Source: a bacterium (GTDB taxonomy: Bacteria; Babelota; Babeliae; Babelales; RVW-14). From it: a DNA stretch of 18,557 nucleotides. Of this stretch, positions 12,207 through 17,957 are shown piece after piece (position 1 is the stretch's first letter; every line of letters begins with the position of its first letter). The stretch spans positions 1 to 18,557 of the forward strand of contig JBDRBF010000028.1 of assembly GCA_043822925.1 (NCBI GenBank), written 5' to 3'. The notes beneath the pieces were generated by a model that was given only the letters and a program-made list of their open reading frames with translations, did not search any database and was not told the DNA's origin. Made by a program: the position numbers and the translations under genes.

Positions 12207-13359
12207 TCAAAATAACCGTAAGACTTTCTTCGGGTCAAATGGCCCAGTAGAAAATTCTACCAAAATCCTACTTTCCACCATTTTTTTAAGTCTTGTACTT
12301 GTTGTTCTCGGGGTAACAGCCCAAAGAGCCTGTGCTTTTTTAGGGGATATCGTCTTATGTTTTTTTTAAATACTCTTTTATTGGCTTATCCCAATCACCA
12401 ATAATATTCTGCTTCTGTTTTTCATGATACAACGTTACTTTAAAAAAATTACCCACTTCTTCAAACTTTGGAGCAAGAATTCCATGCTGCTGGCAAACAG
12501 TCTGCATTCTTTTAAAACCAGAACCCCACTGTTCTATTAACTCAAGCTCCCTAAACACACGCCCAATAACCCGGTTACGCAACGGTGAAATCCCAGACAA
12601 TGGCAGCTTCCATACTGAGACCAAACGGCAAACATCCCGAATTAGTTATTTCTATACGGTCATCAAAAATTGCAACGTGAATCGAAGCTCCCATAATTGA
12701 ATAATCAGTATGTACCAAGGCATTAGTTATCGCCTCTCTTAAAACAACATCTGGATATTGTAGAACTTTCTTATGCCTTGTGGCCCCAATTTCAATTGCC
12801 ATTGAAGTATGGCGTCTAATAAAAGAAAGCACATGCTTTAAAGCAACTGAAATTTTGAAATATTATTAAAAAATTCTTTTGCTAACTCAAGATTAATATT
12901 TGATAAAGCACAAGAAAAATTAGGCTGTTCATCAAAGTGTTTATATTCCTGTAGGCGCTGTATTTGTGAAATAGTTTAGCTATCAGCAAGCCGATTCATT
13001 GAACCAAGACGAACATAAGTCCCCCCTGACATACCTTTTGCTTTAATATAAAATGGACCAAAACGGTGCGGCACCGAAACAATAAGAAGATCACGGCTTT
13101 GTAACGTATAAAACAGAAATGATGGGAATATTTGCGGAAAAACTGAGTCAGCAACGGCACTGGCTAATTTTTCTTCTTCTTGAAGAACATCTCCCAGCCC
13201 AACGACCTCTTTTGTTTTATCTGCGATTCCAATAATCAGTGAGCCTCCCGCAGTATTTGCAAACGCGACTATTGTTTGAATTATTTTTTGTAAAGACGTG
13301 GTACATTCTTTGAACTCAAGTGTCTTGCCTTTATTTTGAATTAGTAATTCGTTTATCAT
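12207..13359 (-). pseudogene. Degraded AlbA_2 (Schlafen-like) + HATPase_c_4 + winged-HTH gene (family often annotated as ATP-binding protein / RecG-like transcriptional regulator)
   Basis: Fragments read in order: KTLEFKE..IVAFANTAGGSLIIG..YVRLGS; LREAITNALVHTDYS..IFDDRIEITNSG; LRNRVIGRVFRELELIEQWGSG; AQALWAVTPRTTSTRLKKMVESRIL ending at TGA 12207-12209. Interrupted by an in-frame stop (12976-12978), a frame change near 12855, and frameshifts near 12601 and 12360. Confidence 0.88.
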
Positions 13360-13490
13360 ACAAAAACCCCTTAAATCACCGAGCAATCATAACTTATTTC
13401 TTCTCTACCTAGAAAACAACCTAGAAACCAACAATGCACAAGCGCTTCTAGGTTTGCACATAAAAAACCCGCCAAACAGACGACATGCAT

Positions 13491-14511: not shown

Positions 14512-14549
14512 TTGCACCCATGTGCAATAAACAGCCCATATGCTATACT
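14512..14549 (+). promoter_or_regulatory. Putative extended -10 promoter with a palindromic operator-like site
   Basis: TG-C-TATACT (14541-14549); palindrome TTGCAC-CCAT-GTGCAA (14512-14527) overlaps the -35 position. Confidence 0.45.
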
Positions 14550-14651
14550 GATAAAACGTGGGGTTTTCTTATACAAGGTACACAAATCTGTCCTAAAAAA
14601 TGGGATCTAACGATTCTAAATAGTTCTGGAATACCAAGAAGGGGTATATTT

Positions 14652-15350
14652 ATGTATAACAATTTTGATAATAATTACTCAGGCACAAATTCAATAACCA
14701 AGGTTATGTACAAAGTATATGCATGGATGGGGGCTGCGCTGGCTATAACAGCCGCGACAGCATATGGCGTGTATTCACATACACCACTATTCACTGCGCT
14801 TGTAACCAATAAACTTCTGTATCTTGGTCTGATTCTTACGCAATTTGCACTCGTTCTGGCCCTCTCATTTTTCTTAAAAAAGATGAGCTTTGGCTCAGCA
14901 GCCCTTGCATACATCGTGTACGCTATAACATCTGGCGCAACACTTTCAGTTATATTCGCGCTCTATCAATTACCATCAATCGTAACTATATTGTGCGTTA
15001 CGATGGCAATGTTTTTTGTAATGGCCCTTTATGGTTATTACACAAAAGCTGATTTGACCAGCATGGGTAACATCATGCTCATTGCTCTTTTTGGATTTAT
15101 TATTGCAAGTGTCGTTAATATGTTTTTACACAATAGTATGCTTGAACTTTTTTGCGCATGGCTCGGTGTAATAATTTTTACCGGCTTAATTGCATATGAT
15201 ACGCAAAAAATAAAAGATATCTCAGCTAACATGATCGAACAAGGCGAGCCAACAAACAAAATCGCATTATTCGGCGCATTAACGCTTTATCTTGACGTCG
15301 TAAACTTATTCTTAAGTTTATTAAGATTATTTGGTAAAAAGAAAGACTAA
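14652..15350 (+). CDS. Bax inhibitor-1/YccA (YbhL-like) membrane protein
   Basis: KVYAWM, GYYTKADLTSMG, GVIIFTGLIAYDTQKIK, GALTLYLDVVNLFLSLLRLFG; about 7 TM segments. ATG 14652 follows AAGGGG and is preferred over 14520. Confidence 0.93.
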   Translation: MYNNFDNNYSGTNSITKVMYKVYAWMGAALAITAATAYGVYSHTPLFTALVTNKLLYLGLILTQFALVLALSFFLKKMSFGSAALAYIVYAITSGATLSVIFALYQLPSIVTILCVTMAMFFVMALYGYYTKADLTSMGNIMLIALFGFIIASVVNMFLHNSMLELFCAWLGVIIFTGLIAYDTQKIKDISANMIEQGEPTNKIALFGALTLYLDVVNLFLSLLRLFGKKKD

Positions 15351-15537: not shown

Positions 15538-15579
15538 GTGCACATGTTTGGTATAAATTTTTATACCAAACATGTGCAC
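15538..15579. repeat. 42-bp palindrome (perfect 20-bp arms, 2-nt spacer)
   Basis: GTGCACATGTTTGGTATAAA-TT-TTTATACCAAACATGTGCAC. Confidence 0.95.
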
Positions 15580-15635: not shown

Positions 15636-16715
15636 TTAAATCCAATAAATCGTCAAAAACACCACTAATAACACAAGAATCAGTACGAATAAAATGTCAT
15701 TGAGATTTTCAAGCTTTTCATTACGCAATTTCTTTGTTTGCTCATCAAGATTACCACTTTTATGCAAAACCAATACGATATATGTTTGTAAAAATAATAT
15801 CAAGAGAGAAAGAAAAACAACCAGGTAATAAACCTTATCAATATGCGTTATATATCCAACACGTGGCGAAACTGAATCAATCACTAATCTAAAAAGTACC
15901 AAGGCAGGCACGCCAGCCGAGACAAGACCAATTCGATTAGAATCTGTAATATTTAACATCATTGAAATCAACATAAGAAAGAACAAAATAAAAAGTGGAA
16001 AATAAAGCGAAACCGGCAACCGTGCACTAACATTTTCAAATCCTACAGTAAACGCAACGCAGGGATATGTAATATTCATACGAGAATCTTGAGGATTAAA
16101 ATCTGCCTTAATATACCCAGCACAAGCAACTGTTTCTTTTGGCTTCCAATTTTCAACTAACATATTTTCTGGCAAAGTTATACTTCCAGGCTCGGTAACA
16201 AAAACCAATTCTTGCGCCGTCACACTTTTATTCTGCAAAATAAAACTCAGCTTATGATCACCAATAGGAAAAAAATTATACTTAAGAACCGCCATAAAAT
16301 TTGCTTGAATGTGATAACTAACAAGCACTTCTTTATCAAGTATTTTTATAATCGGCGGCGATTTATAAATAAGACTTCCATCCCCAAGCAACTTACTATT
16401 TTTCAGCGTAAACTTACCAAGCGTATCCAAAGACTCTGTCGCTTGAGCGAATCTAAACCAAACAGTTGCATCGATTGAAAAATTATTACTAGAAAATGAA
16501 AAATCCGGAAAACTATTAACATGTATTCCAACAGTTACCGGCGTAGCCAATTTCTTAATTTTATCGTCCACCTGCAAAAGTTTAGGGAATTCTTCACTAT
16601 GAATAGTTTGTTTATATTGTAAAACGAAAAGAAGCATTATATAACAAACAACCGCAAGTATCGACATCAATTGAAATTTAGTCGTTTTAATAATTCTCAG
16701 CAAATCAAACGTCAT
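15636..16715 (-). CDS. Prokaryotic pentameric ligand-gated ion channel (pLGIC / Pro-loop receptor) homolog
   Basis: Beta-sandwich pattern PVTVGIHVNSF..NNFSIDATVWFRF; Pro-loop YNFFPIGDHKLSF; ENW; M1 with Pro (LYFPLFILFFLMLISMML); M2 starting at Arg; M2-M3 loop PRVGYITHID; M3; C-terminal M4. Confidence 0.8.
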   Translation of the reverse strand: MTFDLLRIIKTTKFQLMSILAVVCYIMLLFVLQYKQTIHSEEFPKLLQVDDKIKKLATPVTVGIHVNSFPDFSFSSNNFSIDATVWFRFAQATESLDTLGKFTLKNSKLLGDGSLIYKSPPIIKILDKEVLVSYHIQANFMAVLKYNFFPIGDHKLSFILQNKSVTAQELVFVTEPGSITLPENMLVENWKPKETVACAGYIKADFNPQDSRMNITYPCVAFTVGFENVSARLPVSLYFPLFILFFLMLISMMLNITDSNRIGLVSAGVPALVLFRLVIDSVSPRVGYITHIDKVYYLVVFLSLLILFLQTYIVLVLHKSGNLDEQTKKLRNEKLENLNDILFVLILVLLVVFLTIYWI

Positions 16716-16718
16716 AAT

Positions 16719-17876
16719 TTATCCCTTTATAATTGATATTTCTCTACCAAAAGCATGCCGATTAGTCTCATCAAAATTAACCATAAATCCATCTATCATA
16801 TGTTGTTTCATATTTTCTATTGCTTTAATAATTTTTTCTTTAGTTATCGTTCCAGATATATTTTTTATGGCATCGATTATTATCGCCGTACTCACGTAAT
16901 AGCTAAACGCTAAAATATTTGGAATCTCTTCTGGAAAATATTTTTTCATATCTTCTAGATATTGTTTGGCTAAAAGCATCTGACTTGTTTTTGGATCTGG
17001 CACAGCCGAACTATAATAAAAATCAGCACCACGCGCCTGAACAATGTCTCCGACAAAAAGCGTAGAATCTATGCCGAAAAACGTAACTCCATAATGCCCC
17101 TGCGTAAAAAAATTATTAATTAATTTCACAACCGGCATACTCGTCGATAAGCAAATAACTATTTTAGGATCAGATTCTATCAATCTTTTAACAGCACCAG
17201 CTATATCAAGCGTAAATCTATTGTACGACGCTATAGCAACAGGCTTAATGTCATGCGCAACAAGTTCTTTAGTCAGCTCATTCGAAGCATCTGTCGAAAA
17301 ATCATCATCAGCATGAAAAATGGCTATTTTTTTTAGTTTTATATTTTTCTCAATATAATCAACTATCGCCGTTAGTTGTGGTTTTAAAAGTCCTGGACCA
17401 TTAATTATATGAGTTAATTTTGGATCACGAAACTGTTGGTCGCCACTCCATGGGAAAAAAAGCGCAATTTTTTCTGTTTTAATAAGAGGCAATAACTTAA
17501 GCACACTTCGTGTACCCATATTTCCAATAAACATGTCTATGCCATCTTTGAGTAACCGCTCAACGTTTTCTTCTGTTTTACGTGGGTCGCCGGCATCATT
17601 CACGCTCACCAATTTTAACATCTTGCCATGCACCCCACCACTATCATTAACGTGATTCATACGCGCCTGAATCGCTTTTTGTATAATATTCCCATAAAGC
17701 CCAAAAGCGCCATCCAAACTCGCCGACTGCCCAAACACAATGCTATTATTACTTGCAGGCTCTTGATTTACTCTTTTTTTATCTATAACTACCTGATCTC
17801 CTAGGCCATCACTTACAAGACCAATAAAAACACAGATACTTATGAAAAACACAAAAATTATCTTTTTGATCTTCAC
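16719..17876 (-). CDS. Type I (LIV/Venus flytrap) periplasmic ligand-binding protein, branched-chain amino acid SBP-like
   Basis: Signal or anchor sequence, then IVFGQSASLDG..VNDSGGVHGKMLKLVSVNDAGDP..GNMGT..KKIAIFHADDDF. GTG 17876 follows GGAG; the ORF-track start at 17888 is an alternative. Confidence 0.9.
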   Translation of the reverse strand: MKIKKIIFVFFISICVFIGLVSDGLGDQVVIDKKRVNQEPASNNSIVFGQSASLDGAFGLYGNIIQKAIQARMNHVNDSGGVHGKMLKLVSVNDAGDPRKTEENVERLLKDGIDMFIGNMGTRSVLKLLPLIKTEKIALFFPWSGDQQFRDPKLTHIINGPGLLKPQLTAIVDYIEKNIKLKKIAIFHADDDFSTDASNELTKELVAHDIKPVAIASYNRFTLDIAGAVKRLIESDPKIVICLSTSMPVVKLINNFFTQGHYGVTFFGIDSTLFVGDIVQARGADFYYSSAVPDPKTSQMLLAKQYLEDMKKYFPEEIPNILAFSYYVSTAIIIDAIKNISGTITKEKIIKAIENMKQHMIDGFMVNFDETNRHAFGREISIIKG

Positions 17877-17957
17877 GGCACTCTCCACTGGTAATGGTTA
17901 AAAATAAACACGTTACTTTTAGAGACTATTTATTTTCCCTCCTGTAAAGCAATAGTT

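Follow-up and report, generated by a model that had tools for sequence, protein, structure and literature searches.

The locus considered here raises the question of whether an ion channel of the pentameric ligand-gated type (pLGIC) can transmit a signal from its extracellular domain to its pore without the Asp-Arg salt bridge that most members of this superfamily share. It lies on contig JBDRBF010000028.1, in a stretch of 18,557 nucleotides (nt) that was analysed as a whole and is called the window below, and consists of an open reading frame (ORF) of 359 amino acids at positions 15636..16715 of the minus strand, encoding a divergent Pro-loop receptor, P0001. All coordinates within this gene refer to the minus strand. 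An initial annotation of the DNA had counted the pair formed by the Pro-loop Asp and the Arg preceding transmembrane (TM) helix M1, which as a rule connects the binding of ligand with the opening of the pore, among the most conserved features of pLGICs. Table 1 of Jaiteh 2016 agrees, with the Asp present in 93% (Glu in 3%) and the Arg in 94% of 561 pLGICs, next to a Pro-loop aromatic residue (F/Y) in 96% and a Pro in 100%; some 6-7% of the catalogued channels are without the Asp or the Arg. Bertozzi 2016 reports no activation of Asp-to-Ala mutants in ELIC or GLIC, no activation of the Arg-to-Ala mutant in ELIC and no expression of it in GLIC, and describes GLIC D32 as the third member of a branched salt bridge with R192. 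We consider it fairly probable, from the sequence comparisons described below, that P0001 is a functional pLGIC with a binding-protein partner, and that this electrostatic triad was lost once in its subfamily, the loss having been tolerated thanks to a second layer of contacts at the interface.

Both residues of the pair are replaced in P0001. The tip of the Pro-loop reads F149-P150-I151-G152-D153-H154 (16254..16271): F-P is kept, Gly occupies the position of the canonical Asp (G152, 16260..16262; GLIC D122 by the profile alignments) and H154 corresponds to GLIC Q124. N228 (16032..16034) stands where canonical channels have the pre-M1 Arg (GLIC R192). The final residue of strand beta10, which DSSP places at 215-228, it sits 12 residues before the M1 proline, P240, in the segment G-F-E-N-V-S-A-R-L-P-V-S-L-Y-F-P (residues 225-240). 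A search with the single sequence against the chains of the Protein Data Bank (PDB) placed FPIGDH opposite FPMDVQ of the glycine receptor and E-N228 opposite its pre-M1 E-R (E 0.016). The profile of 49 homologues aligned position 152 with D122, 228 with R192 and P240 with P204 of GLIC (best E 3e-6). A profile of 121 sequences from the wider family again put 152, 228 and P240 opposite D122, R192 and P204, at E 4.5e-18, and also paired 153 with S123, H154 with Q124, 232 with S196, W190 with W160 and F149-P150 with Y119-P120. Columns 149-154 are free of gaps in 189/189 sequences of that family, and the spacing from F226 to P240 is constant in 187/189. The AlphaFold2 (AF2) model and DSSP end beta10 at 228 and begin M1 at 232. 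The reading of these two sites in the initial annotation, Gly152 at the Asp position of an F-P-I-G-D-H loop and Asn228 in place of Arg 12 residues before the M1 Pro, is thus borne out by the translation of the ORF and by the ungapped alignments with GLIC.

The fold of the modelled protein is unambiguously that of a pLGIC. P0001 is laid out as an N-terminal TM helix, a beta-sandwich extracellular domain and helices M1-M4 with a very short M3-M4 loop. The AF2 model, built on the 49 homologues (predicted local distance difference test score, pLDDT, 86.2; predicted template modelling score, pTM, 0.75), assigns the N-terminal helix to residues 2-35, the beta-sandwich to 58-228, M1 to 232-253, M2 to 260-282, M3 to 291-322 and M4 to 325-358. 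Foldseek matched it to glycine and GABA-A receptors, sTeLIC and GLIC in the PDB (E ~1e-17, TM-scores of 0.59-0.75), at an identity to solved channels of 11-16%, and a structure search of the ESM Atlas with P0001 retrieved Neur_chan_LBD clusters at TM-scores of 0.71-0.78. Of the seven residues that Table 1 of Jaiteh 2016 gives as most conserved in pLGICs, five are kept (F149, P150, W190, P240 and P284), and the missing two are those of the salt bridge. The same hallmarks are retained across the 189 sequences of the wider family: F149 as F in 182 and Y in 7, P150 in 189, the beta9 Trp W190 in 182, P240 in 188 and P284 in 189.

The missing pair is not peculiar to this copy. A word-indexed search yielded 48 close homologues at 36-73% identity, giving an alignment of 49 rows; the few that bear a name belong to candidate division TM6 or Candidatus Babeliales. 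An exhaustive search of representatives clustered at 50% identity found 654 at E ≤0.001, with 382 at E ≤1e-10. Counts for the wider family refer to the 150 representatives listed of these 654 together with the close set, from which the fragments P0050, P0073, P0074, P0181 and P0186 were dropped; the channel domains of the remaining 189 sequences, 141 of them representatives, were cut out and aligned. Column 152 of the close set holds G25, E11, S7, A2, T2, C1 and Q1, with D in 0/49, and column 228 holds N26, S15, G4, E2, R1 and Q1, with no K. The 13 full-length orthologues from genome records agree, D152 being found in 0/13 and R228 in 1/13 (L004). Whether orthologues share the state of P0001 had been posed as a check in the initial annotation: they do, with D152 in 0/49 and R228 in 1/49, and they do not keep the D/R pair that this copy is missing. 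The canonical residues are common among the 141 representatives, where column 152 reads D61, E23, N20, G17 and S10, and column 228 R52, K37, N18, S11 and Q10. As a separate observation, G225 in beta10 (16041..16043) is unique to P0001, the column being D in 41/49 close sequences and 88/141 representatives; close to the interface, no other position sets this copy clearly apart.

In a FastTree phylogeny of the 189 sequences, midpoint-rooted and computed with the four trait columns excluded, P0001 belongs to a clade of 78 sequences (support 100). Neither charge is present in 63 members of this clade, 10 have the acid only, 3 both and 2 the base only, whereas among the other 111 sequences neither is found in 8, the acid only in 18, both in 64 and the base only in 21. 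Within the clade, Pro stands at M2 9' in 73 and Ser at column 73 in 70. The 67 sequences with both charges were set against the 71 without either. The beta1-beta2 loop residue S73 (16497..16499), at or next to the third triad member (GLIC D32), belongs to a column that is D42/N17 in the former and S56 in the latter. The M2 pore helix (residues 260-282, 15870..15938) shows no gap between 0' and 23' when aligned with GLIC or the glycine receptor and contains R261 (0'), P270 (9', 15906..15908), L274 (13'), F275 (14'), R276 (15'), L277 (16') and D280 (19'); P284, in the M2-M3 loop at 23', lies just outside it, and R261, P270 and P284 are invariant in 49/49. Sequences with both charges have T37/S15 at 9', A/G/S at 13', F57 at 16' and L/I at column 291, and those with neither have P61, L57, L42/M16 and H43, respectively. 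Residue 9' in the 141 representatives is T61, P29, S26, A13 and L4. The acid at position 73 disappears together with the pair, so that the whole electrostatic triad appears to have been lost in the clade of P0001 along with a remodelling of the pore. Neither the change at position 73 nor that of the pore helix figures in the initial annotation. In pLGICs, M2 9' is usually hydrophobic (Leu/Ile) and forms the mid-pore gate; P270 does not provide such a residue, and with Leu at both 13' and 16' a hydrophobic gate, if there is one, may lie further up the pore.

Constraint on the gene is evident. Channel ORFs are intact in 13 loci at 353-372 amino acids, the alignment of 49 rows contains 16 invariant and 32 nearly invariant columns although identity to P0001 goes down to 36%, and the hallmarks are retained. 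In pairs involving P0001 the proportion of nonsynonymous differences (pN) is 0.36-0.43 and that of synonymous ones (pS) 0.72-0.88. The absence of the pair, common to the orthologues and to 63/78 of the clade, is consequently better described as a selected lineage trait than as the decay of one copy; the initial annotation, too, had thought random decay the less likely explanation, given the intact ORF.

Several positions that may carry the second layer are among the best conserved of the whole family, along with the F-P tip and the M2-M3 Pro: H154 (46/49 close homologues, 184/189 in the wider family), G/S230, R232, R276 (15') and D293. D153 (16257..16259), a second Pro-loop acid ancestral to the wider family, is D in 39/49, 141/189 and 103/141 representatives. 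R232 (16020..16022), the first residue of M1, is a second base found throughout the family after the conserved G/S230 (R40 and K4 of 49; R145 and K24 of 189; R105 and K20 of the 141 representatives). Among the states of the four residues 152-153-228-232 in the 189 sequences, D-D-R-R is the commonest (22) and G-D-N-R, as in P0001, occurs 14 times. D153 and R232 are therefore ancestral extras beside the canonical pair rather than replacements that arose with its loss. Since the second layer existed beside the canonical pair in relatives, the pair would have been redundant and could be lost.

The channel does not stand alone. Directly upstream on the same strand, at 16719..17888 (minus), lies a gene for a periplasmic binding protein of the LivJ/LivK type (389 amino acids; Peripla_BP_6 at E 7e-41), the stop of which is 3 nt before the channel ATG; its profile matches Leu/Ile/Val-binding proteins in the PDB (best 4kv7, at 4.1e-31). 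A binding-protein gene occupies this place in 12/14 genome loci (L001-L014), with gaps of -23 to +23 nt. The exceptions are L009, which ends at a contig edge, and L012, where SbcC lies upstream, followed by a gap of 625 nt (3376-4000), without a remnant of a binding protein even at E 10. Downstream, 57 nt past the channel stop, a consensus scan detected a terminator-like hairpin with 19 pairs and a T run (15538..15579, minus) that is likely the end of a two-gene operon; the scan gave 4 sites, against 2.0 expected in shuffles. No permease or ATPase of an ATP-binding cassette (ABC) transporter was found among 46 flanking ORFs of the 14 loci (within 4 kb), where one finds genes such as SbcC, KdtA and Lon. 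The binding protein is therefore an orphan in constant company with the channel. A Peripla_BP_6 domain is located C-terminal to the channel in six distant relatives of 971-1112 amino acids (P0107, P0138, P0148, P0173, P0175 and P0184), separated from the channel in 4/6 by a Metallophos (calcineurin-like phosphoesterase) domain, for which P0148 and P0173 gave no match. From synteny and fusions we infer that the binding protein controls the channel. Two other candidates were set aside. The N-terminal extensions of the clade members P0068, P0071 and P0079 had no match to the A2 profile (E 10) and none in Pfam that would make them binding proteins, and the Metallophos gene of the window, at 5454-6704, encodes SbcD and has no connection with the fusions.

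The mechanism we propose is as follows. The triad of beta1-beta2 Asp, Pro-loop Asp and pre-M1 Arg, by which canonical channels link extracellular domain and pore, would have disappeared in essentially one event at the root of the clade of P0001, and selection would since have preserved this state. In the same clade the pore-lining face of M2 would have changed from Thr/Ser to Pro at 9', from a small residue to Leu at 13' and from Phe to Leu/Met at 16'. Coupling could proceed through the retained non-electrostatic contacts, that is the F149-P150 tip, P284 of the M2-M3 loop and P240, and also through the family-specific H154, G/S230, R232, R276 (15') and D293. The channel and the LivJ-like protein would be co-transcribed, and the latter may deliver or sense a ligand, likely an amino acid or a similar small solute, and act on the extracellular domain.

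An error of alignment would dissolve the question altogether. At an identity of 11-16% to solved channels, and given the weak single-sequence match (E 0.016), D153 and R232 could be thought to be the true canonical Asp and Arg, misplaced by register slips of one and four residues. We regard this as very improbable: in relatives that align ungapped with P0001, D occupies 152 as well as 153 and R/K occupies 228 as well as 232, the same relatives are ungapped against GLIC D122 and R192 at E 4.5e-18, and the spacing is fixed from the invariant P150 (+2) and from P240 (-12), with DSSP ending beta10 at 228. Neither the profile alignments nor the boundaries of secondary structure place D153 and R232 at the canonical positions. 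That P0001 is a decaying or relaxed copy, a pseudogene in the making, is harder still to credit. It could draw on the missing residues and on the one unique substitution, G225, but the ORF is intact and of orthologue length, the state is clade-wide, pN remains far under pS, and the binding-protein gene is a conserved partner in the operon, with 3 nt between its stop and the start codon of the channel. A further possibility, raised in the initial annotation, is that D153 and R232, one and four residues downstream, form a new Asp-Arg bridge that has taken over the job of D122-R192. Among the close homologues D153 is found in 39/49 and R/K232 in 44/49, residue 152 is Gly or small in 37/49, which could let the loop tip re-orient, and R232 opens M1 at the domain interface. 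Yet both residues were present before the loss and occur alongside the canonical pair, an acid at 153 and a base at 232 co-occur 129 times against ~130 expected under independence, and the independent-pairs test for 153 and 232 is not significant (median p 1). Moreover, an acid is missing from both 152 and 153 in 22/189 sequences, of which 20/22 keep R/K232, five of the 13 locus orthologues (L002, L004, L007, L011 and L014) likewise combine R232 with the absence of any Pro-loop acid, and the tree calls for 28 changes of the acid at 153 and 16 of the base at 232. R232 is thus independent of D153, and the bridge is at best facultative. A dedicated replacement seems rather unlikely to us, and this suggestion of the initial annotation finds little support; D153 and R232 may contribute to coupling, although not as an obligate pair.

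It could also be that coupling was lost rather than rewired, leaving a leak channel, a channel regulated otherwise (by pH, ions, lipid or voltage) or a membrane dock for the binding protein. The inactivity of the Ala mutants of the canonical Asp in GLIC and ELIC, and of the Arg mutant in ELIC (Bertozzi 2016), would fit this, as would the invariant Pro in place of the hydrophobic gate residue at 9' and the poor conservation of loop C (residues 204-215) in the consensus. On the other hand, conservation in the protein is highest at the F-P tip, H154, the M2-M3 loop (P284, G287, Y288 and D293) and G/S230-R232, a pattern not easily accounted for by an interface that transmits nothing, and the tight conserved operon together with the fusions to ligand-binding proteins argues for a device under ligand control. 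We therefore judge a loss of coupling unlikely, a shade more so than a replacement bridge. A bolder version of the coupled channel can be envisaged, an undescribed pLGIC branch in which the agonist would be the ligand-loaded binding protein itself, docked on the extracellular domain, and not an unbound small molecule in the orthosteric site, with the signal reaching a 9'-Pro-kinked pore through an interface free of the triad that is regarded as nearly essential to pLGIC gating; this we put forward as speculative and rather doubtful in its particulars.

A number of points weigh against our preferred reading of a functional channel that lost its triad once. Every curated family threshold failed for P0001: a Pfam search gave zero matches at E 0.01, and at E 10 it gave Neur_chan_memb in 15/49 members (best E 0.029) and Neur_chan_LBD in 3/49, while the NCBIfam models were below cutoff, LIC with 29.5 bits (E 3.1e-7) against 280 and LGIC_1 with 19.8 against 500. 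The residue of GLIC that faces column 73 is D31, the neighbour of D32, in a gapless loop of equal length with a weak score (-0.2 bits). The positions that change together mark essentially one clade and are phylogenetically confounded, and, as the tree is midpoint-rooted, loss as the direction of change rests on outgroup reasoning from canonical pLGICs. The independent-pairs test for 152 and 228 is not significant (median p 0.625), so that a correlated joint loss is not shown by it, and the 24 changes of the acid at 152 and 25 of the base at 228 on the tree suggest that the pair may have mattered less in this family from the start. Finally, pS is saturated (0.72-0.89 over all locus pairs; for the best pair, L007-L014, dN is 0.24 and dS at least 2.4), and saturated dS gives no reliable ratio of nonsynonymous to synonymous rates (dN/dS) for the gene in the window.

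The hydrophobic helix ahead of the extracellular domain (residues 12-35, 16611..16682; pLDDT 91 for residues 11-30) deserves separate mention. Its consensus in the alignment of 49 rows conserves T12, F14, Q15, L16, Y25, Q33 and Y34. Extra TM or cytoplasmic N-terminal extensions occur in relatives, and in their light the helix looks like a retained fifth TM helix; it is probably this, which is unusual for pLGICs, and not a cleaved signal peptide. In two of the relatives (P0098 and P0112) an N-terminal multi-TM extension matches DUF5985. Three others (P0110, P0131 and P0155) have a similar length and layout (541-561 amino acids, channel C-terminal) without a Pfam match. All of these are non-Arg at M2 15' and look like another architectural branch of the family.

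P0001 resembles GLIC, the proton-gated pLGIC of Gloeobacter, together with ELIC and sTeLIC, in its beta-sandwich extracellular domain, four TM helices and minimal M3-M4 loop, as well as in the Pro-loop F/Y-P, the beta9 Trp, the M1 and M2-M3 prolines, F at 14' and the equal length of the beta1-beta2 loop. It differs from this group in the absence of the Pro-loop Asp, the pre-M1 Arg and the beta1-beta2 Asp, in His for Q124 of GLIC, in Pro at 9' (Ile in GLIC), in Arg at 15', in the extra conserved N-terminal TM helix, in the dedicated binding-protein gene alongside and in failing the Pfam and NCBIfam thresholds. The association of prokaryotic pLGICs with periplasmic binding-protein modules has precedents. 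Tasneem et al. 2005 (PMC549065) describe bacterial pLGICs with N-terminal fusions to type I periplasmic binding proteins (PBP-I) and in operons with stand-alone PBP-II, and propose that modules of this kind serve the channel by sensing or concentrating small ligands; they also report the aromatic-Pro-aromatic-Asp signature and the basic residue to be nearly universal. The operon of P0001 shares with these systems the pairing of a prokaryotic pLGIC with a periplasmic binding-protein module, but here the stand-alone partner upstream is of the PBP-I type (Peripla_BP_6), and the fusions in relatives are C-terminal, after M4. In DeCLIC, likewise a prokaryotic pLGIC, a further periplasmic module modulates gating (PMC12664993); its N-terminal accessory domain is, in contrast, fused and not of the binding-protein fold. 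Ionotropic glutamate receptors, a parallel drawn in Tasneem 2005 (PMC549065) and in PMC12664993, are also channels controlled by modules of binding-protein fold; the likeness is a functional analogy and not homology, as their channel architecture is unrelated, tetrameric and with a P-loop pore.

Neither the pLGIC superfamily nor its link to binding proteins is new. The novelty lies in the combination of a coherent, un-annotated subfamily that has none of the triad with a Pro invariant at 9', a conserved additional TM helix at the N-terminus and an orphan binding protein dedicated to the channel. A literature search, which did not cover subscription journals, found no description of the subfamily of P0001 and none joining pLGICs and Dependentiae.

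The remainder of the window encodes, among others, a WD40-repeat protein of 695 amino acids (387-2474), a Schlafen AlbA_2 domain protein (12976-13386), a Bax1-I family membrane protein (14520-15350) and an ORF of 267 amino acids without Pfam or NCBIfam match (7402-8205). The eukaryote-like mix of domains among these genes fits a symbiont genome of the Dependentiae type.

The interest of the finding is mechanistic and evolutionary, with no direct applied consequence. A selected subfamily in which the bridge and the position-73 Asp are gone and the other hallmarks kept would be a natural test of which contacts are needed for gating, and the wider un-annotated family (654 clusters at 50% identity), as it holds both states, offers matched comparisons. 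Were the reading with a docked binding protein as agonist true, it would amount to a demonstration by nature that coupling can do without the D-R bridge. Dependentiae, where this genome is placed by the names of its nearest relatives, are a phylum about which little is understood and whose members are reported to live within protists; the pairing of the channel with an orphan LivJ-like protein suggests that they may possess a two-component ligand-sensing channel.

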